Origin: a virus
Taxonomy: Duplodnaviria; Heunggongvirae; Uroviricota; Caudoviricetes
Virus record (IMG/VR): IMGVR_UViG_2698536535_000007
Span: 1-8,413 of that record
Direction: 5' to 3' (one strand)
Length of the DNA: 8,413 nucleotides
How positions within the stretch are numbered: position 1 is the stretch's first letter; every line of letters begins with the position of its first letter. A program made the position numbers and the translations under genes. Under the pieces are notes generated by a model, which saw only the letters and a list, made by a program, of their open reading frames with translations, was not told the origin of the DNA and searched no databases. Positions 1 to 8,413 of the stretch are shown here, one piece after another.

Positions 1-423
1 ATGGAAGAACAAGCAAACAAGATTCTCGTAGAACTACTGCAAAAAGCCAGCAATGGAATAGATGCTGCTGTCTCATTTAGCCAGGCACAGATTCCTGATG
101 TTGTTCGTCAGTTGCTAATATGGAGTTTTGTCCATAGCGCACTTTTCCAAGTGGCTGGGTTGTTGCTTTTAATTGCAGCAATGAAACTTCCTAGTTTTGC
201 AAGAACGGAAAGAAATAATGGCGAGAGATGGACGTCTTTAGATGGATGTCCAAATGATAGATATTTTATATCTTCTTTTTATTACGACATGTGCACTGTA
301 TTTGCTCCTATATTTGGCTCAATTATTGGTGTTTTAATTATTGCCTTCAATTTCGAATGGTTGAAGATTTGGCTTGCACCTAAGTTATTCCTAATCGAAT
401 ATGCAGCATCATTGGTTAAGTAA
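1..423 (+). CDS. Hypothetical small membrane protein, 140 aa; possibly 5'-truncated by the window edge; candidate superinfection-exclusion type protein
   Basis: ORF starts at base 1 so the true start cannot be verified. Two long hydrophobic stretches (VAGLLLLIAAM, FAPIFGSIIGVLIIAF) suggest transmembrane helices. Followed directly by an intrinsic terminator. The functional guess is positional only. Confidence 0.45.
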   Translation: MEEQANKILVELLQKASNGIDAAVSFSQAQIPDVVRQLLIWSFVHSALFQVAGLLLLIAAMKLPSFARTERNNGERWTSLDGCPNDRYFISSFYYDMCTVFAPIFGSIIGVLIIAFNFEWLKIWLAPKLFLIEYAASLVK

Positions 424-427
424 TTTC

Positions 428-453
428 AGGCCGCATAGTCGGCCTTTATTTTT
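428..453 (+). terminator. Rho-independent terminator
   Basis: Stem AGGCCG (428..433), loop CATAGT, stem CGGCCT (440..445), then a T-rich tail TTTATTTTT. Lies 5 nt after the stop of ORF 1..423. Confidence 0.6.
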
Positions 454-475
454 GGCATAAACAACAGAGGCTAAC

Positions 476-766
476 ATGGAATTTAAAGGTACTGAAGGTA
501 AGTGGGAAATAATGATGGATGGCGATGAGATTAAAATCATCCAGGCAGACTCACTTGAAAATGGCGCAGGCTGGCGTTCGTATATTGCAATCTGTGAGGA
601 AGTTCAATGCATTGAAGATGCCAATCTAATAGCGGCAGCACCAGACCTTTTAAATGCCATGCAAGCAATGCTAAACAAGGCATACAAGCAAAACTGGAAT
701 GACCATTATCCTGATGAAGTATCGAAAGCACAGTCAGCAATCAGCAAAGCTCTTGGGGATGAGTAA
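476..766 (+). CDS. Hypothetical phage protein, 96 aa, carrying an IAAAP-type motif shared with the Ea22-like protein
   Basis: ATG at 476 preceded by AGAGG (466..470). Motif ANLIAAAPDLLNAM resembles [18 protein letters not shown] in the 3151..3885 protein. Its stop overlaps the next start (TAATG). Confidence 0.6.
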   Translation: MEFKGTEGKWEIMMDGDEIKIIQADSLENGAGWRSYIAICEEVQCIEDANLIAAAPDLLNAMQAMLNKAYKQNWNDHYPDEVSKAQSAISKALGDE

Positions 767-954
767 TGAAAGTAAAAATAACGAAGTCGAATACCAGTTT
801 TGTTCGGCCGGGAGAGATAACAGATATCGAAACTCGCCCGCATGGAAGTCAGTTTATGTGGTCTGAATCTTGTCAACGGTACGAAAAACTATCCTGGGTA
901 ACAAACATGTGGGGTGTTGAATACGAAGAAATACCTGAAATGCATGACGAATAA
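766..954 (+). CDS. Hypothetical small protein, 62 aa
   Basis: ATG overlaps the upstream stop (TAATG), consistent with translational coupling. No recognisable motif. Confidence 0.45.
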   Translation: MKVKITKSNTSFVRPGEITDIETRPHGSQFMWSESCQRYEKLSWVTNMWGVEYEEIPEMHDE

Positions 955-959
955 GCACT

Positions 960-987
960 GTGTATTCATTCCAACGAGTGAATACAC
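960..987. promoter_or_regulatory. Perfect inverted repeat GTGTATTCA-N10-TGAATACAC; candidate operator or RNA hairpin
   Basis: Half-sites at 960..968 and 979..987 are exact reverse complements. No T-tract follows, so it is not an intrinsic terminator. Sits 6 nt after the stop of the 62-aa ORF. Confidence 0.3.
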
Positions 988-1049
988 GGAGCAATGTCGC
1001 TCGTAACTAAACAGGAGCCGACTTGTTCTGATTATTGGAAATCTTCTTT

Positions 1050-1073
1050 GCCCTCCAATGTGAGGGCTTTTTT
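1050..1073 (+). terminator. Rho-independent terminator
   Basis: Stem GCCCTC (1050..1055), loop CAATGT, stem GAGGGC (1062..1067), then TTTTTT (1068..1073). The track ORF 1035..1274 runs through this hairpin, so its 5' part is unlikely to be coding. Confidence 0.6.
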
Positions 1074-1139
1074 ATATGCATACCAATAACGCTTCACTCG
1101 AGGCGTTTTCGTTATGCAATCAAATATAAGGAGTTACCC

Positions 1140-1274
1140 ATGATGCACTTTCAGCTCGCGGGTAGCGGCGTCATGTCCGCTTTCTACCCGCACGAATCTG
1201 AATTATCACGCCGAGTTAAACAATTAATCAGAGCAGCAAAGAAACAACTGGAGGCGTTATGCGCAATGAAATAG
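1140..1274 (+). CDS. cIII: CIII-like protein (FtsH inhibitor / CII stabiliser homolog), 44 aa
   Basis: Strong SD AAGGAG (1129..1134) ahead of ATG 1140. Product MMHFQLAGSGVMSAFYPHESELSRRVKQLIRAAKKQLEAL aligns by eye with my recollection of lambda CIII (MQYAIAGWPVAGCPSESLLERITRKLRDGWKRL). Not search-verified. Confidence 0.55.
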   Translation: MMHFQLAGSGVMSAFYPHESELSRRVKQLIRAAKKQLEALCAMK

Positions 1275-1411
1275 CCATCAATCACCAGATGCTTCGTGCT
1301 GCACAGAACAAAGCAGTAATAGCCAGATTTATTGGTGATTCAAAAATGTGGCTTGAAGCAAATAAAGCGATGAAATCAGCTATCAACCTTCCGTGGTATC
1401 GCAGGAAATGA
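1259..1411 (+). CDS. kil: Kil-like small protein (host cell-division inhibitor homolog), 50 aa
   Basis: Not in the ORF track (under 60 aa). SD GGAGG (1250..1254) ahead of ATG 1259. Product MRNEIAINHQMLRAAQNKAVIARFIGDSKMWLEANKAMKSAINLPWYRRK. The segment IARFIGDSKMW resembles lambda Kil as I recall it (IATFIGDEKMF). Position directly after cIII matches lambda order. Confidence 0.5.
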   Translation: MRNEIAINHQMLRAAQNKAVIARFIGDSKMWLEANKAMKSAINLPWYRRK

Positions 1412-1578
1412 GTTTTACAGATAACTGGTCAGACGAAGAATTCATTCGTCAGATGAAAGAATTAATCGGTAACGAAGGAGATATTCATGTCACTTGCAAC
1501 CACAGTGAAGGAGAGCAAGTTACAGAGACGCATGTACACGCAGCAGGCGTTAATGTATCGCCAGAAGGGAGATCGTGA
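1408..1578 (+). CDS. Hypothetical acidic small protein, 56 aa (alternative A of two overlapping out-of-frame ORFs)
   Basis: ATG 1408 overlaps the kil-like stop (ATGA coupling) but has only a weak, close AGGA. Product MSFTDNWSDEEFIRQMKELIGNEGD... Overlaps ORF 1487..1657 in another frame for 92 nt. Confidence 0.35.
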   Translation: MSFTDNWSDEEFIRQMKELIGNEGDIHVTCNHSEGEQVTETHVHAAGVNVSPEGRS

Positions 1579-1657
1579 AGGTGTTCGCGTATTTTTAAAT
1601 GCGGCAAAGACTGAAGTATTAAATCAGCGTTATTTCCTTGGGCCATGTCCATTCTGA
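1487..1657 (+). CDS. Hypothetical basic small protein, 56 aa (alternative B; occupies the position of an accessory recombination gene before erf)
   Basis: Not in the ORF track. Strong SD AAGGAG (1474..1479), 7 nt before ATG 1487. Product MSLATTVKESKLQRRMYTQQALMYRQKGDREGVRVFLNAAKTEVLNQRYFLGPCPF. Ends 10 nt before the erf start. Confidence 0.4.
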   Translation: MSLATTVKESKLQRRMYTQQALMYRQKGDREGVRVFLNAAKTEVLNQRYFLGPCPF

Positions 1658-1667
1658 GAACAATCAT

Positions 1668-2273
1668 ATGAGCAAAGAATTTTACGCAAGACTGGCAGCT
1701 ATTCAGGAGAATCTGAACGCGCCAAAGAATCAATACAACTCATTCGGCAAATATAAATACAGAAGCTGCGAAGACATTCTTGAGGGTGTTAAGCCGTTAC
1801 TGAATGGCCTGTTTTTATCAATCAGCGATGAAGTTGTGTTGATTGGTGATCGGTATTACGTGAAAGCCACGGCAACTATTACCGATGGCGAAAACAGTCA
1901 TACGGCAACCGCTCTTGCACGAGAGGAAGAAAGCAAGAAAGGAATGGATTCTGCACAAGTTACGGGAGCTACAAGCTCTTATGCACGCAAGTATTGCCTC
2001 AATGGTTTGTTCGGCATTGATGATGCGAAAGATGCAGATACAGACGAGCATAAACATCAGCAGAACGCAGCAGCAAAGCAATCAAAACCATCACTTACAC
2101 CTGAACAGGTTCTAAAAGCATTCACTGACGCAGCAATGCAGAAAAACACCGTAGAAGAGCTTAAACAGGCGTTCGCCAAAGCGTGGAAGATGCTCGAAGG
2201 CACACCGGAGCAGCACAAAGCGCAGGACGTTTACAACATCAGACGAGACGAATTAGAAGGAGCGGCTGCTTAA
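1668..2273 (+). CDS. erf: Erf-family single-strand annealing (essential recombination function) protein, 201 aa
   Basis: Product from the internal Met (MSKEFYARLAAIQENLNAPKNQYNSFGKYKYRSCEDILEGVKPLL ... YARKYCLNGLFGIDDAKD) matches phage P22 Erf as I recall it. The track's ATG 1638 gives a 10-residue extension without an SD, so 1668 is preferred. Confidence 0.85.
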   Translation: MSKEFYARLAAIQENLNAPKNQYNSFGKYKYRSCEDILEGVKPLLNGLFLSISDEVVLIGDRYYVKATATITDGENSHTATALAREEESKKGMDSAQVTGATSSYARKYCLNGLFGIDDAKDADTDEHKHQQNAAAKQSKPSLTPEQVLKAFTDAAMQKNTVEELKQAFAKAWKMLEGTPEQHKAQDVYNIRRDELEGAAA

Positions 2274-2656
2274 TGGCACATTCGATTACTGTAAGACTAA
2301 ACAAGCCCGCAAGAGAGTTTCAGGCCGGGGAAAATATCGGATTCAACATCCGTGCTGGCGTTCAGTATTACGATCGCCAGACAAAAAAGAAAGAATGGAC
2401 AAACTACAGCGCCGTTGTATTTGCCAAGCCGGGAGCGCAAGCGGATTACTACCGTAGTGTTCTTGTTGAAGGTGGCATTGTAGAAATTACCGGAGAAAAC
2501 ATCAGGGTTGATGTTTATCATGGGCAAAATGGTCAATCAATCACTCTTGAATTACTGAATGCAAAGATTGGATTTGCAACCTCAGGAAACAGCCAACAGC
2601 AGCAAAGTAGCAATCATCAAAATCATCCTGAATACGACGATTCAATTCCCTTCTAA
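2273..2656 (+). CDS. ssb: Phage single-stranded DNA-binding protein (SSB-like, OB-fold) with conserved acidic C-terminal tail, 127 aa
   Basis: ATG overlaps the erf stop (TAATG); SD AAGGAG at 2257..2262. C-terminus ...PEYDDSIPF matches the bacterial SSB tail consensus D-F-D-D-D-I-P-F. Preceded by a Gln/Ser/Asn-rich linker. The track's 5' extension from 2183 lies inside erf and is rejected. Confidence 0.8.
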   Translation: MAHSITVRLNKPAREFQAGENIGFNIRAGVQYYDRQTKKKEWTNYSAVVFAKPGAQADYYRSVLVEGGIVEITGENIRVDVYHGQNGQSITLELLNAKIGFATSGNSQQQQSSNHQNHPEYDDSIPF

Positions 2657-2679
2657 AGTAGCAACATAAGGATTCCATT

Positions 2680-2976
2680 ATGCCAGCGCCTTTGTATGGT
2701 GCGGATGACCCGCGCCGCTGTTCCGGCAATTCCGTATCGGAGGTGCTGGATAAATTCAGAAAAAACTACGATCGAATAATGTCTCTACCGCAGGAAACGA
2801 AAGAGGAAAAGGAATTTCGCCACTGTATATGGCTTGCAGAGAAAGAAGAACGCGAGCGAATTTACCAGACATCAATCCGACCATTCCGCAAAGCCACATA
2901 TACCCACTTCCCTGAATATATCGACCCGCGCCTGCGTAATTACCGCTCACGTTATGGCGCTATCAGTAATGACTGA
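2680..2976 (+). CDS. Hypothetical phage protein, 98 aa
   Basis: SD AAGGA (2668..2672), 7 nt before ATG 2680. No recognisable motif. Confidence 0.55.
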
Positions 2977-2986
2977 GGAATTTACC

Positions 2987-3154
2987 ATGAGAGGACTTGC
3001 ATACAATCCCGGCATTCTTCCGGCAGAAATGATTATTCGCCAGCGCGTAAAGCCAATGCCATCGAGAGAGGAATTGCTTAAGAGAAATTCTTTTCCGTCA
3101 GTGAATCAAAACAAATATCTGAATGCGATGTGGCGCAAAGGAGGCAACCAGTGA
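2987..3154 (+). CDS. Hypothetical small protein, 55 aa
   Basis: SD GAGGA (2975..2979), 7 nt before ATG 2987. Stop TGA overlaps the GTG start of the next gene (GTGA). The 5' part of track ORF 2834..3154 overlaps the previous gene out of frame and is rejected. Confidence 0.45.
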
Positions 3155-3885
3155 GCAAGATTGACTATCAGGTACTGCGTGCCAAGGCAGAAAAAGCAAC
3201 GTGTGGTGTATGGTCGCTCGAATATGGAGAGAGCCGATTTGATGGTGATGATGCTCTAATTCATCGCGAGGCTGCTGGATATATTCCCATTTGCAGAATT
3301 GAAGGAGCGCATCCAGAAAGCGGTTTCGATGAAGATTTCCAAATGGAACAGCAGGCCAATGCTGAATTCATCGCCGCAGCCAATCCGGCTACCGTGCTGG
3401 CATTACTGGATGAACTGGAAAGAAACCAGCAATACATCAAACGCCGCGACCAGGAGAACGAGGATATTGCGCTAACGGTAGGGAAGATGCGTGTTGAGCT
3501 GGAAGGCAAAGACAGCAAAATAGCCAATCTTACCGCCGAACGCGATGCTCTTCGTGAAGGTGAGATGGGCGACGCTAGGCATAGCAACACACGGGCCGCA
3601 GCTGATATCTACTTCCAACTGGTCGAGGAGTGCGAAATTCCTGCTGGCGGATCTCTGGTCGAGTACGTTGACGATATGCGCGAGAAGCTGGAAGCCGCAG
3701 AGAAGCGCATTGCTGAGCTGGAGTTGCGGGAGGTTGTGCTTCCGCAATGCTATAGCATGTTGCATCGCGTCGATTTTGACGAGCCTTACCACACTGAAAT
3801 GGTTTACAGGCAGCATCAGGTTCTTGAGGCACTGCACAACGCTGGAATAAACGTCACCGAAGCAGGTAAAGGAGAGGCATCATGA
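3151..3885 (+). CDS. Ea22-like (Ead/Ea22 family) early accessory protein with central coiled-coil, 244 aa
   Basis: GTG 3151 preceded by AAGGAGG (3138..3144) at 6-nt spacing; the upstream ATG-frame start at 3130 lacks an SD. Motif [21 protein letters not shown] and heptad-like charged stretches resemble Ea22-like proteins as I recall them. Confidence 0.6.
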
Positions 3886-4415
3886 GCACTATCACAAGAG
3901 AATGGCTGCAGCAGGCTATCAACGATTATGAAAGCGTTCGTGATGAGCTTCCTTTCGGGCTTGATGATTACCAGGGGAATATCCTGGCTGCCCTGCGTAT
4001 CGCACTGGCATCGCTGGAAGCAGAGCCGGTGGCGTGGAAGGTAACATTCACGCAAATTGACCGTGAATATAACACGTTCACTGGTATGTATTCTGACAAA
4101 GCAGAAGTCGAACGGTGGGTGCGGCTGCATAAAGCATGTAATTTTCGGGCAGATATAACACCGCTTTATACCGCCAAGCCAGTGCCGGTAACTCCGGGTG
4201 GTTGGATAAGCTGTAGTGATCGAATGCCGGATAGCAAAACAGCCGTTCTTGTTGCCAGGGAGTTTGACAGGAAAGGTGACTGGCGAATGAAATGGGCGAC
4301 TTACATCCCTGGGCATCCTGACGCTAATGATGGGTGGATAATTCCTGGTGCGTCGTGGATACCATCACACTGGATGCCGCTACCAGAACCGCCGCAGGAG
4401 GTTAACCGTGGCTAA
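3882..4415 (+). CDS. Hypothetical protein with C-terminal DUF551-like domain, 177 aa
   Basis: ATG overlaps the upstream stop (ATGA). C-terminal region WISCSDRMPDSKTAVLVA ... GWIIPGASWIPSHWMPLPEPP resembles the DUF551 signature as I recall it (W...LP...VLV...W...HWMPLPEPP). Confidence 0.6.
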   Translation: MSTITREWLQQAINDYESVRDELPFGLDDYQGNILAALRIALASLEAEPVAWKVTFTQIDREYNTFTGMYSDKAEVERWVRLHKACNFRADITPLYTAKPVPVTPGGWISCSDRMPDSKTAVLVAREFDRKGDWRMKWATYIPGHPDANDGWIIPGASWIPSHWMPLPEPPQEVNRG

Positions 4416-4689
4416 CCTTCAACTTGCCGTCAAAGGTGAATACTTCGATGCCATGATTCGAGGAGAGAAAACGGAAGAGTATCGCCTGTGTAATGACTAT
4501 TGGAATAAGCGAATTATGTTCCGGGAGTATGACCGCCTGATTATCACAAAGGGATATCCGAAGCGCGACGACTCCAGTCGCAGAATTGATGTTCCGTATG
4601 GAGGATATGAAGTGAAAACAATCACACACCCCCACTTCGGTGATAAACCGGTAAAGGTATACGCGATAAAGGTGAATATCAATTGCTAA
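4408..4689 (+). CDS. ASCH-domain (PUA-like fold) protein, 93 aa
   Basis: GTG 4408 preceded by GGAGG (4397..4401) at 6-nt spacing; overlaps the DUF551 gene end by 8 nt. Contains the ASCH signature GxKxxExR (IRGEKTEEYR). Confidence 0.6.
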   Translation: MANLQLAVKGEYFDAMIRGEKTEEYRLCNDYWNKRIMFREYDRLIITKGYPKRDDSSRRIDVPYGGYEVKTITHPHFGDKPVKVYAIKVNINC

Positions 4690-4713
4690 ATTAGTAGCAT
4701 AGCATAAAGATGC

Positions 4714-4738
4714 TTGCATTAATGAAGTGTGTATAATA
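4714..4738 (+). promoter_or_regulatory. Candidate sigma70-type promoter for the downstream small ORF
   Basis: TATAAT at 4732..4737 preceded by TGTG. A TTGCAT -35-like hexamer at 4714..4719 is too close (12-nt spacer), so the call rests mainly on the -10 and the AT-rich context. Confidence 0.3.
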
Positions 4739-4800
4739 ACGCCTCATCAATAGTAAACTACTGAAATAGCAAAAAATGCATATTAAAGAGGATTCGAAAA

Positions 4801-4992
4801 TTGAAAATGTTCATGCAAATAGACAGACGCATAGATATTAATGGCAATTCATACTTAGTTAGATGCGAAGAGAGGCCTAACGGTGAGTGGCGTGTATATG
4901 ATATTGACCGTAAGATCAATATCAGCACCATGAACAAAGACACTGCCTTTGATGAATGGAAAGCTGAAGCTAAAAAACAACATAATTCGTAG
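4801..4992 (+). CDS. Hypothetical small protein in an AT-rich moron-like unit, 61-63 aa
   Basis: Preceded by GAGG (4788..4791). Start is ambiguous between TTG 4801 and ATG 4807. Flanked by a promoter-like element upstream and a terminator downstream. Visibly lower G+C than neighbouring genes. Confidence 0.5.
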   Translation: MKMFMQIDRRIDINGNSYLVRCEERPNGEWRVYDIDRKINISTMNKDTAFDEWKAEAKKQHNS

Positions 4993-5035
4993 AATTACAA
5001 AAACCCTAACCAATTGATGGATTTCTTTTATCTGA

Positions 5036-5059
5036 ACTCGCTACGGCGAGTTTTGTTTT
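5036..5059 (+). terminator. Rho-independent terminator
   Basis: Stem ACTCGC (5036..5041), loop TACG, stem GCGAGT (5046..5051), then TTTTGTTTT. Confidence 0.5.
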
Positions 5060-5072
5060 ATGGAGATGATAA

Positions 5073-5240
5073 ATGCACTTTCGAGTCACAGGTGAATGGA
5101 ATGGAGAACAATTCAACAGAGTTATCGAAGCAGAGAACATCAATGACTGCTATGACCACTGGATGATATGGGCGCAGATAGCCCATGCAGACGTAACCAA
5201 TATTCGAATTGAAGAACTGAAAGAACACCAAGCCGCCTGA
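5073..5240 (+). CDS. Hypothetical small protein, 55 aa
   Basis: Not in the ORF track. SD GGAGA (5062..5066), 6 nt before ATG 5073. Product MHFRVTGEWNGEQFNRVIEAENINDCYDHWMIWAQIAHADVTNIRIEELKEHQAA. Confidence 0.45.
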   Translation: MHFRVTGEWNGEQFNRVIEAENINDCYDHWMIWAQIAHADVTNIRIEELKEHQAA

Positions 5241-5252
5241 TGGCGGTTTTTT
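5232..5252 (+). terminator. Short rho-independent terminator overlapping the stop codon of ORF 5073..5240
   Basis: Stem GCCGCC (5232..5237), loop TGAT, stem GGCGGT (5242..5247, one G-U pair), then TTTTTT. Confidence 0.4.
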
Positions 5253-5266
5253 ATTGGAGACAAGAA

Positions 5267-5611
5267 ATGTCAGATTTGGCTATGAAGGTTTTGAAATGGC
5301 AATCAACTGGCGATGTTAGCATCAGTAGCGCAACTCTTGCCTCAATCGCATGTGGACTGAAAAAGAATATCTATTGTCATCACTTCGGCGCTCCCCATGA
5401 CGCAGCCGATTTCAGACGATGCGTTGCACTTGTTGAGCAGATTCCAGAAATCAGAGATTCATTCAACAAGGTTGCAAAGCGCGTTCCGGCATTCAAAGGA
5501 ATCCTCAACGAATGGGATTCCCTCGTTGCTCTGTTGAAGTCTGAAATGAAGATACACGGAAACAAAGCACCAGAGACTTACAGAAGAATCAGAGAGCTAC
5601 GCAAGGACTAA
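5267..5611 (+). CDS. Hypothetical Cys/His-rich protein (possible zinc-binding), 114 aa, directly upstream of xis
   Basis: SD GGAGA (5256..5260), 6 nt before ATG 5267. The track's start at 5240 lies in the terminator T-tract and is rejected. Cluster C29-x7-C37-H38-H39-x4-H44-x7-C52 could bind a metal. Confidence 0.55.
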   Translation: MSDLAMKVLKWQSTGDVSISSATLASIACGLKKNIYCHHFGAPHDAADFRRCVALVEQIPEIRDSFNKVAKRVPAFKGILNEWDSLVALLKSEMKIHGNKAPETYRRIRELRKD

Positions 5612-5680
5612 CCATGAAATAACACCGCCTCACACTCGATGAGGCCTGTTCATTGCTCAATGATATCCAGACCTACCATC

Positions 5681-5701
5681 GCCGCATCAATGCGGCTTTT
5701 T
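5681..5701 (+). terminator. Rho-independent terminator upstream of xis
   Basis: Stem GCCGCA (5681..5686), loop TCAA, stem TGCGGC (5691..5696), then TTTTT (5697..5701). Confidence 0.5.
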
Positions 5702-5702
5702 C

Positions 5703-5716
5703 TTGCGTGTAATTGC
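5703..5716 (+). promoter_or_regulatory. CII-binding site (TTGC-N6-TTGC) of the pI integrase promoter
   Basis: TTGCGTGTAATTGC lies just upstream of the xis ATG, matching lambda pI, whose transcript starts inside xis so that Int is made without Xis during establishment of lysogeny. Confidence 0.6.
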
Positions 5717-5728
5717 GGAGACTTTGCG

Positions 5729-5947
5729 ATGTACTTGACACTTCAGGAGTGGAACGCACGCCAGCGACGCCCAAGAAGCCTTGAAACAGTTCGTCGATGG
5801 GTACGCGAGTGCAGGATATTCCCTCCTCCGGTTAAGGATGGAAGAGAGTATCTGTTCCACGAATCAGCGGTAAAGGTTGACTTAAATCGACCAGTAACAG
5901 GTAGCCTTTTGAAGAGGATCAAAAATGGGAAGAAGGCGAAGTCATGA
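5729..5947 (+). CDS. xis: Excisionase Xis, 72 aa
   Basis: Product MYLTLQEWNARQRRPRSLETVRRWVRECRIFPPPVKDGREYLFHESAVKVDLNRP... matches lambda Xis as I recall it. Track ORF 5639..5947 is an in-frame 5' extension across the terminator and pI site and is rejected. Confidence 0.93.
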   Translation: MYLTLQEWNARQRRPRSLETVRRWVRECRIFPPPVKDGREYLFHESAVKVDLNRPVTGSLLKRIKNGKKAKS

Positions 5948-6995
5948 GCGCCGGGATTTACCCCCTAATCTTTATATAAGAAACAATGGATATTACTGCT
6001 ACAGGGACCCAAGGACGGGTAAAGAGTTTGGATTAGGCCGAGACAGGAGGATAGCAATCACTGAAGCTATACAGGCCAACATTGAGTTATTTTCAGGACA
6101 CAAGCACAAGCCTCTGACAGCGAGAATCAACAGTGATAATTCTGTTACGTTACATTCATGGCTTGATCGCTACGAAAAAATCCTGGCCAGCAGAGGAATC
6201 AAGCAGAAGACACTCATAAATTACATGAGCAAAATTAAAGCAATAAGGAGGGGTCTGCCTGATGCTCCACTTGAAGACATCACCACAAAAGAAATTGCGG
6301 CAATGCTCAATGGATACATAGACGAGGGCAAGGCGGCGTCAGCCAAGTTAATCAGATCAACACTGAGCGATGCATTCCGAGAGGCAATAGCTGAAGGCCA
6401 TATAACAACAAACCCGGTCGCTGCCACTCGCGCAGCAAAATCAGAGGTAAGGAGATCAAGACTTACGGCTGACGAATACCTGAAAATTTATCAAGCAGCA
6501 GAATCATCACCATGTTGGCTCAGACTTGCAATGGAACTGGCTGTTGTTACCGGGCAGCGAGTTGGTGATTTATGCGAAATGAAGTGGTCTGATATCGTAG
6601 ATGGGTATCTTTATGTCGAGCAAAGCAAAACAGGCGTAAAAATTGCCATCCCTACAACATTGCATGTTGATGCTCTCGGGATATCAATGAAGGAAACACT
6701 TGATAAATGCAAAGAGATTCTTGGCGGAGAAACCATAATTGCATCTACTCGTCGTGAACCGCTTTCATCCGGCACAGTATCAAGGTATTTTATGCGCGCA
6801 CGAAAAGCATCAGGTCTTTCCTTCGAAGGGGATCCGCCTACCTTTCACGAGTTGCGCAGTTTGTCTGCAAGACTCTATGAGAAGCAGATAAGCGATAAGT
6901 TTGCTCAACATCTTCTCGGGCATAAGTCGGACACCATGGCATCACAGTATCGTGATGACAGAGGCAGGGAGTGGGACAAAATTGAAATCAAATAA
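5925..6995 (+). CDS. int: Tyrosine site-specific integrase Int (lambda-type), 356 aa
   Basis: Product MGRRRSHERRDLPPNLYIRNNGYYCYRDPRTGKEFGLGRDRR... is near-identical to lambda Int as I recall it. Catalytic R (VTGQRVGD), H-x-x-R (HELRSLSARLY) and H...Y (LLGHKSDTMASQY) are present. SD GAGGA (5914..5918). Start overlaps the xis end by 23 nt, as in lambda. Confidence 0.96.
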   Translation: MGRRRSHERRDLPPNLYIRNNGYYCYRDPRTGKEFGLGRDRRIAITEAIQANIELFSGHKHKPLTARINSDNSVTLHSWLDRYEKILASRGIKQKTLINYMSKIKAIRRGLPDAPLEDITTKEIAAMLNGYIDEGKAASAKLIRSTLSDAFREAIAEGHITTNPVAATRAAKSEVRRSRLTADEYLKIYQAAESSPCWLRLAMELAVVTGQRVGDLCEMKWSDIVDGYLYVEQSKTGVKIAIPTTLHVDALGISMKETLDKCKEILGGETIIASTRREPLSSGTVSRYFMRARKASGLSFEGDPPTFHELRSLSARLYEKQISDKFAQHLLGHKSDTMASQYRDDRGREWDKIEIK

Positions 6996-7083
6996 TGATT
7001 TTATTTTGACTGATAGTGACCTGTTCGTTGCAACAAATTGATAAGCAATGCTTTTTTATAATGCCAACTTAGTATAAAAAAGC
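6996..7083. other. attL: lambda attP P' arm (Int arm-type and IHF sites) plus 15-bp core
   Basis: The region is the reverse complement of the lambda attP P' arm and core (GCTTTTTTATACTAAGTTGGCATTATAAAAAAGCATTGCTTATCAATTTGTTGCAACGAACAGGTCACTATCAGTCAAAATAAAATCATTATTTG). Core TTAGTATAAAAAAGC is at 7069..7083. Flanking host bases (AGGC...) match the attB B arm. Confidence 0.88.
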
Positions 7084-7129: not shown

Positions 7130-8413
7130 GTGAACACATTTTCAGTTTCCCGTCTGGCGCTGGCATTGGCTTTTGGCGTGACGCTGACCGCCTGTAGCTC
7201 AACCCCGCCCGATCAACGTCCTTCTGATCAAACCGCGCCTGGTACCTCTTCTCGCCCGATTCTGTCGGCAAAAGAAGCGCAGAATTTCGATGCTCAACAC
7301 TATTTTGCATCCCTGACACCAGGTGCTGCAGCGTGGAATCCTTCCCCGATTACCCTGCCTGCGCAACCTGACTTTGTTGTCGGCCCGGCGGGCACTCAAG
7401 GTGTAACGCATACCACGATTCAGGCGGCGGTAGATGCGGCAATTATCAAGCGTACCAACAAGCGCCAGTATATTGCCGTGATGCCTGGTGAGTATCAGGG
7501 AACGGTATATGTCCCTGCCGCTCCGGGTGGAATTACTCTGTACGGTACAGGTGAAAAACCGATTGATGTGAAGATTGGGCTTTCCCTTGATGGTGGCATG
7601 AGCCCTGCCGACTGGCGTCACGACGTCAACCCGCGCGGCAAATATATGCCAGGTAAACCAGCGTGGTATATGTACGATAGCTGCCAGAGCAAACGCAGCG
7701 ACAGTATCGGTGTTCTCTGCTCTGCGGTCTTCTGGTCACAAAACAATGGCCTGCAACTGCAAAATCTGACCATCGAAAACACGCTGGGCGATAGCGTAGA
7801 TGCAGGTAACCATCCGGCGGTGGCACTGCGTACTGATGGTGACCAGGTACAGATTAACAACGTTAACATTCTCGGTCGTCAGAACACCTTCTTTGTCACC
7901 AACAGCGGTGTGCAGAACCGTCTGGAAACGAATCGTCAGCCGCGTACGCTGGTGACCAACAGCTACATTGAAGGGGATGTGGATATCGTTTCTGGTCGCG
8001 GCGCAGTGGTGTTCGATAACACCGAATTCCGCGTGGTGAACTCACGTACTCAGCAAGAAGCGTATGTGTTTGCACCGGCTACGCTGTCCAACATTTACTA
8101 CGGTTTCCTCGCCGTAAACAGCCGTTTCAATGCTTTCGGTGATGGTGTGGCGCAACTGGGCCGCTCGCTGGATGTTGATGCCAATACCAACGGTCAGGTG
8201 GTGATCCGTGATAGCGCCATCAACGAAGGTTTTAACACGGCTAAACCGTGGGCCGATGCGGTGATCTCTAATCGTCCGTTTGCGGGTAATACCGGCAGCG
8301 TAGATGATAACGACGAAATACAGCGCAATCTGAATGACACTAACTACAACCGCATGTGGGAATACAATAACCGCGGCGTGGGTAGTAAAGTGGTTGCAGA
8401 GGCGAAGAAGTAA
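7130..8413 (+). CDS. ybhC: Host lipoprotein YbhC (pectin methylesterase-family fold), complete, 427 aa
   Basis: GTG start with SD GGAG (7120..7123). Lipoprotein signal MNTFSVSRLALALAFGVTLTAC with lipobox LTAC. Recognised as E. coli ybhC, the gene flanking attB-lambda on the gal side. Stop TAA is the last codon of the window. Confidence 0.9.
   Translation: MNTFSVSRLALALAFGVTLTACSSTPPDQRPSDQTAPGTSSRPILSAKEAQNFDAQHYFASLTPGAAAWNPSPITLPAQPDFVVGPAGTQGVTHTTIQAAVDAAIIKRTNKRQYIAVMPGEYQGTVYVPAAPGGITLYGTGEKPIDVKIGLSLDGGMSPADWRHDVNPRGKYMPGKPAWYMYDSCQSKRSDSIGVLCSAVFWSQNNGLQLQNLTIENTLGDSVDAGNHPAVALRTDGDQVQINNVNILGRQNTFFVTNSGVQNRLETNRQPRTLVTNSYIEGDVDIVSGRGAVVFDNTEFRVVNSRTQQEAYVFAPATLSNIYYGFLAVNSRFNAFGDGVAQLGRSLDVDANTNGQVVIRDSAINEGFNTAKPWADAVISNRPFAGNTGSVDDNDEIQRNLNDTNYNRMWEYNNRGVGSKVVAEAKK

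Follow-up and report, generated by a model that had tools for sequence, protein, structure and literature searches.

Positions 4681-5018 of the window, the 8,413-nt stretch of DNA analysed here as a whole, are an acquired cassette that carries a real gene and lies in a lambdoid prophage, within its early-left operon and upstream of terminators that belong to the backbone. The account we favour, and hold to be probable, is that of a horizontally acquired accessory-gene cassette in the variable exo-xis part of the pL operon, a moron only in the sense of "more DNA". The original prediction had described a moron-like, self-contained unit with a promoter-like element and a terminator of its own. 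Of that description, the extra DNA, the distinct composition, the real small gene and the terminator downstream have stood, and the self-containment and own terminator have not; a promoter of its own is at best putative. The locus would be a clean example of how lambdoid phages gain a small accessory gene, in which a 338-bp cassette entered a terminator hairpin and was then shared among unrelated prophages. Its gene is real and rare, goes unannotated in all complete E. coli carriers under the standard NCBI pipeline, and enlarges by one the set of uncharacterised small phage proteins that are screened for anti-defence or exclusion functions. None of the results points to a new kind of system.

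The insert in the early-left operon

The gene content identifies the window as a lambdoid prophage's early-left arm (pL, "exo-xis"), up to the flanking host gene; its plus strand is the direction of leftward early (pL) transcription. Gene order was assigned from PHROG and Pfam matches. All on the plus strand, the order is cIII (1035-1274), kil (1259-1411), erf (1638-2273), ssb (2183-2656), abc2 (2680-2976), ea22 (3130-3885), a gene for a DUF551 protein (3882-4415), an ASCH-domain gene (phrog_625, 4408-4689) on the left flank of the insert, the insert itself, an orf55-type gene of 55 aa (phrog_676; HK022_33; 5073-5240) on its right flank, a phrog_1229 gene, xis (5639-5947), a lambda-type integrase gene, int (5925-6995), and a pectinesterase-like host gene (427 aa, 7130-8413). 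We take this last gene to be ybhC, neighbour of the lambda attachment site, and the prophage appears to be integrated there. PGAP calls the left-flank gene ASCH in all E. coli carriers, and the HK022_33 record mentions a lambda homologue. The phrog_1229 match begins only at residue 10 of the ORF that opens at 5240, and the gene after orf55 therefore probably starts at ATG 5268 and not at 5240. The insert occupies the position of an exo-xis accessory gene, on the pL strand, with erf, ssb and abc2 upstream and the orf55 homologue, xis and int downstream. Exo-xis genes are reported to belong to early pL transcripts (PMC8614690).

Alignment to related phages, which had been proposed as a check, confirmed the presence of extra DNA. 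Homology to HK022, APC_JM3.2 and vB_EcoP-720R6 breaks at 4680 and restarts at 5019, so that the edges of the inserted module (338 bp, or ~340; 34% G+C) are 4681 and 5018. These 338 bp stand in place of 30 bp in the three phages, in which the gap between ASCH and orf55 is ~60 nt, and the 30 bp of HK022-type backbone that were replaced include the 5' arm of the tL4 hairpin. Since the HK022-type homology ends at 4680, the last three codons and the stop of the ASCH gene are supplied by the insert. In the carriers L032-L040, the right boundary is at 5009 instead (insert 4681-5009). The original prediction had treated 4690-5060 as one unit; this gives way to an insert at 4681-5018 (4681-5009 in some carriers), with 5019-5060 being conserved backbone outside it.

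The AT-rich dip that had been reported was borne out by a sliding-window G+C analysis, in which 4690-5060 has 34.5% G+C (29.7% in the leader at 4690-4800, 37.5% in the ORF) against 45.0% for the phage part of the window (1-7000), 49.8% for 3000-4685 and 45.6% for 5061-7000. The segment is the minimum of the phage part: only 0.7% of the 371-nt stretches in 1-7000 are this low, every one of them overlapping 4690-5060. Measured on the inserted module itself, the composition is likewise unlike that of the surrounding genes (34% vs 45-50% G+C). The same holds for homologues of the gene, which in HK639 and in the loci L010 and L011 have a G+C content below that of their own flanks in every context.

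Promoter-like element and terminators

In the Hendrix/Juhala definition, a moron is DNA added between genes that adjoin in relatives, of distinct composition, with its own promoter and terminator, and expressed from the repressed prophage (PMC3594210). A true moron at this locus would have a sigma-70 start about 7 nt downstream of the TATAAT at 4732-4737 and a transcript that ends at 5034-5059; its protein would be made in the repressed lysogen and would benefit the host, for example through exclusion or blocking of other phages. We consider this unlikely. Several features of the locus do fit that definition: the insert adds DNA of distinct composition between ASCH and orf55, which adjoin each other in related phages, its leader is long and AT-rich, a perfect -10 hexamer lies at 4732, a strong predicted terminator follows 42 nt past the stop codon, and diverged homologues have a terminator right after the gene.

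The TGTG-TATAAT element of the original prediction is present on the plus strand (4728-4737, by motif scan), and its perfect -10 hexamer at 4732-4737 is one of only two on the plus strand of the window, but it is hardly convincing as a promoter. With spacers of 14-20 nt, the best -35 for this hexamer matches at 2/6 positions. The TG dinucleotides lie at -16/-15 and -14/-13, against -15/-14 in an extended -10, and are thus out of register by one base. A consensus promoter scan did not report the site at 4732-4737, and a TATAAT arises in 15% of shuffles of the 111-nt leader (a chance of ~0.15). The first base of the hexamer is also variable, T4732 (position -12) being replaced by A in 9 carrier loci (AATAAT; the L032, L033 and L040 variants). 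In addition, the leader shows no conservation against HK639 or L011, and the homologue P0008 has no leader at all: the start of its gene overlaps the stop of the upstream gene by 4 nt, which therefore leaves no room for a promoter of its own. The leader further contains, between the -10-like hexamer and the ribosome-binding site, a poly-A run (4771-4776, plus strand; identified by carrier comparison) of 6 to 9 A among otherwise near-identical carriers, a run that seems prone to slippage.

The terminator is real as a predicted structure, and the claim of a hairpin at 5036-5059 was upheld. Folding gives an intrinsic terminator on the plus strand (5034-5059) with an 8-bp stem at 5034-5053 and loop UACG, followed by the U tract UUGUUUUAU; its free energy is -11.9 kcal/mol (z -4.9), and 0 of 200 shuffles fold as well. 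It starts 42 nt past the stop codon of the ORF. This terminator is backbone sequence, present in HK022, APC_JM3.2 and 720R6, all of which are without the insert. In the HK022 record X51962, the annotated tL4 terminator (AATCCTCGCATTCGCGGGGATTTCTTTTA) is directly followed by a second hairpin (GAACTCGCTACGGCGGGTTTTGTTTT), the two together folding at -26.6 kcal/mol, and the terminator of the window is this second hairpin with one base different. The insert has destroyed the HK022-type tL4 hairpin next to it: comparison with HK022 tL4 shows that the 5' arm is lost to the insert and that part of the 3' arm and the T tract are left as a remnant at 5019-5031 on the plus strand (GGATTTCTTTTAT). A search of the tL4 literature, as far as the sources were accessible, returned nothing relevant. 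In carriers L032-L040, with their right junction at 5009 and different right flank, the neighbourhood of the ORF yielded no terminator. The claim that the element has its own terminator is therefore withdrawn, since none is carried with it, though a predicted terminator follows the gene in the window. Nor is the unit self-contained, as its terminator pre-existed in the backbone; the promoter-like element amounts to an isolated -10 hexamer, no better than chance.

The different right flank of L032-L040 holds a DinI-like gene behind a LexA-box-like site. At L032 3400-3425, the insert is followed by TACTGTGTTTATATACAGTA, which we take to resemble a near-perfect LexA box, and then by an 83-aa DinI-like gene at 3433-3684 (Pfam DinI, E 2.3e-27). 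In these carriers, the DinI-like gene beside the cassette would be an SOS-controlled unit. Within the window, terminator-like sites number 17 vs 7.6 expected, several of them on the plus strand of the operon. One found by the terminator scan follows orf55 (5230-5249, plus strand), and its loop contains the orf55 stop codon plus the ATG at 5240.

The surroundings of diverged homologues were compared for the same features. The non-coding gap before the gene is 111 nt in the window and 124 nt in HK639 and L011, which is unusual in a tightly packed operon and is room for a promoter. The gap of HK639 holds a promoter-like consensus site (9/12, within chance expectation) that is found in HK639 only and not in L011. 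In HK639, L010 and L011, an intrinsic terminator follows the gene, its stem starting 16-26 nt past the stop codon. The terminator scan is expected to return about 0.6-0.7 sites per 700-900 nt on both strands; with a stem at this distance in three of three homologues and so low an expectation, the association is unlikely to be due to chance. The family thus tends to end a short terminated segment, a role that in the window is filled by the pre-existing terminator. No conserved partner genes were found beside the homologues. This gene-plus-terminator pattern fits an insulated unit, and it bears on a further possibility, which we rate as improbable: that the 63-aa protein founds a very small family, is produced from the AT-rich leader in the lysogen, and is a new small inhibitor, its target being for example a competing phage or a host defence or repair protein. 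If this were true, the gene-plus-terminator arrangement in all three diverged contexts would indicate a unit that is insulated, expressed from the prophage and placed safely upstream of xis and int.

For the accessory-gene cassette that we favour, position and strand suggest that, soon after infection or induction, antiterminated polymerase coming from pL would read the gene, primarily together with its neighbours. A polymerase that started within the AT-rich leader would be halted at 5034-5059 and again at 5230-5249, before xis and int. Against transcription as part of the pL operon stand the upstream gap of 111-124 nt, the 9/12 promoter-like site of HK639 and the terminators placed 16-26 nt after the stop codons of the homologues.

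Spread of the cassette and its gene

We searched for the unoccupied site with an HK022-type query consisting of ASCH, the tL4 hairpin, the second hairpin and orf55, counting matches with at least 80% query coverage. The empty site occurs in 648 of 5426 complete E. coli genomes and in 71 phage records. The filled site was found in 27 full and 3 partial E. coli genomes, 29 IMG/VR contigs and one phage record, the Stx2a phage Stx2_16002 being the sole carrier of that kind; carriers make up ~4% of sites. Across carriers, the segment is 95-100% identical despite mosaic backbones, and the host genes adjoining the carrier prophages differ (the pectinesterase-like gene in the window, wrbA in L006, dsdC in L007). 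A near-identical insert in mosaic backbones beside different host genes indicates that it has moved between prophages via recombination in the flanks.

These counts and the tL4 remnant bear on the direction of the change. That the segment is ancestral and was lost by deletion in most relatives is very improbable. Truncated remnants (L008, P0006, P0007) show that deletions or recombination inside the segment do occur, but the insert-free phages have a complete tL4 with a 9-bp stem, and a deletion would have needed to create its matching 5' arm. The G+C content of the segment is also unlike that of both flanks, and the carriers, at ~4% of sites, share it at 95-100% identity in backbones that are mosaic. 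The half tL4 hairpin kept in the window argues for insertion into a tL4-bearing backbone, and not for deletion from the others. As a horizontally acquired cassette, the segment would have brought in an AT-rich leader of 120 nt, a ribosome-binding site and the gene for a soluble protein of 63 aa. It would have entered between the ASCH gene and two tandem terminators already in place, taking the 5' arm of the first (HK022 tL4 type) and sparing the second (5034-5059). Recombination in the conserved flanks would then have carried it into unrelated lambdoid backbones.

Several further observations concern the junctions and variants of the segment. A perfect 8-nt inverted repeat, ATCAATTG / CAATTGAT, lies at 4678-4685 and 5011-5018, exactly at both insert junctions, and contains the palindrome CAATTG. 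By a rough, post-hoc estimate, such a placement would arise by chance in a few cases in a thousand; its right copy is absent from carriers L032-L040, and the repeat could be an insertion trace or a coincidence. In E. coli 2015C-4498 (L006, 5386-5704), a further extra gene, encoding a hypothetical protein of 99 aa, lies between the terminator and orf55. The sequence of window positions 5056-5070 (TTTTATGGAGATGAT) flanks this gene on both sides, and for that reason the terminator/orf55 junction looks like a recurrent site of module exchange. In E. coli OkiPb01684 (L007), the leader is interrupted by an ISEc8 element (IS66 family), which separates the TATAAT from the ribosome-binding site and has the equivalent of window positions 4781-4788 on either side. 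Gene remnants in other E. coli and Salmonella prophages have kept only the 3' part, joined to unrelated 5' sequence; the remnant at L008 4001-4099 retains nothing before the equivalent of window position 4921, and in P0006 and P0007 just the C-terminal part of the protein is left.

Judged by its conservation, the ORF at 4801-4992 is a real gene. It lies on the plus strand of the ORF list, opens with TTG, and is preceded by a Shine-Dalgarno-like AGAGGA read from the sequence (4787-4792, plus strand), 8 nt upstream of the start. The small ORF named in the original prediction was thus found in place, and its support is better than chance in two respects. First, its product matches the phrog_16329 profile with E 8.5e-49, residues 1-63 aligning to positions 1-63 of 63, which makes it a member of that family. 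Second, tblastn places a full-length homologue (66-67% identity) inside the annotated gp31 of phage HK639, and over 61 codons the comparison with HK639 gp31 gives pN 0.205 and pS 0.82 (saturated), indicating purifying selection. DNA likeness between the window and HK639 ends where the coding sequence ends. An exhaustive HMMER search of 1.84 billion representative proteins returned nine hits, two of them full-length, diverged homologues (P0008, 49% identity; P0009, 36% identity) with the same length and start position as the protein of the window. An alignment of the four proteins runs over their entire length and has 17 invariant positions; the start methionine of the homologues falls on the TTG at 4801, and frame +1 alone is open in all four diverged homologues. 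Among carriers, 7 sites vary in the 192-nt ORF, vs about 16 in the 111-nt leader. A scan of species-representative genomes returned nothing but a spurious 13-residue match.

Two reverse-strand ORFs (4758-4943 and 4855-5013) were considered and rejected, as their frames are not kept open in L010 and L011. The annotated start of HK639 gp31 (L009 3914-4180, 88 aa) has no support upstream in the family alignment; it is probably too far upstream, and the ATG at L009 3992, giving 62 aa, would be the start. In the accessible part of the literature on HK639, we found no study of a gp31-type gene.

A structured leader RNA was also considered and rejected. The leader folds at 4685-4771 with -24.7 kcal/mol (z -2.2), and its covariation is no better than that of shuffles (103/500 reach the score), with a single compensatory pair among 15 distinct carrier variants; Rfam has no match anywhere in the window at E up to 1. 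It is hardly credible that the ORF encodes nothing and that the segment is a small RNA, a regulatory RNA leader or junk DNA: the ORF is unannotated by PGAP in 27/27 full-length E. coli carriers, starts with TTG and follows a leader that folds at z -2.2, but against this stand the pN of 0.21 beside a saturated pS of 0.82 in the HK639 comparison, homologues at 49% and 36% identity that share length and start position, a frame that is the sole one open in all homologues, an AlphaFold single-sequence pLDDT of 86, the empty Rfam result and the leader structure without covariation.

The acquired cassette thus encodes a 63-aa protein of 7.6 kDa and pI 7.9 that is hydrophilic and without a membrane segment. 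A single-sequence AlphaFold model (pLDDT 86) has four antiparallel strands followed by a C-terminal helix. Foldseek searches of this model against PDB and BFVD gave nothing significant, Pfam, NCBIfam and PADLOC were empty for the ORF, and a profile search of PDB sequences with the family alignment had no hit below E 1.7. A relation to the cyanovirin-N homology (CVNH) family was rejected: a 34-residue hairpin resembles one repeat of the CVNH protein P0011 with an hhalign probability of 23%, and there is no Pfam hit. The original prediction had recognised no motif in the product; the homology and structure searches it called for amend this with the phrog_16329 family match and agree with it as to structure, where no match was significant. 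From its size and location, our best guess is that this small product may bind and modulate a protein of the host or of a competitor, a role put forward for other exo-xis products.

Comparison with known systems

The cassette resembles the lambdoid morons HK97 gene 15, lambda bor and lom in being extra DNA of distinct G+C content that carries a single small gene with a terminator downstream. It differs from them in lying in the early-left operon, whereas those morons lie in the late operon, in relying on a terminator owned by the backbone, and in having a lone -10 hexamer. HK97 gp15, Bor and Lom are envelope proteins. The product of the cassette, in contrast, is hydrophilic and has no membrane segment.

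The resemblance to exo-xis genes extends to location and product. Like them, the cassette gene lies in the same operon and on the same strand, in the variable block between ea22 and xis and directly upstream of the orf55 homologue, and its product is small and soluble like theirs. It has no sequence or family match to the named exo-xis proteins, however, and the gene is far rarer.

Among proteins, the relatives are HK639 gp31 and the phrog_16329 family. The protein of the window and gp31 are 66-67% identical over their full length, and both genes lie in the early-left arm on the same strand, upstream of the integrase gene and with a terminator after them. The homology is limited to the coding sequence, the leader and terminator of HK639 being unrelated to those of the window. 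For the site of insertion, the counterpart is HK022 tL4 (X51962): the right junction of the insert falls inside the tL4 hairpin, and the second hairpin of the tandem pair is the terminator of the window. The tL4 hairpin is intact in HK022, whereas in the window it is destroyed, leaving its T tract and part of its 3' arm.
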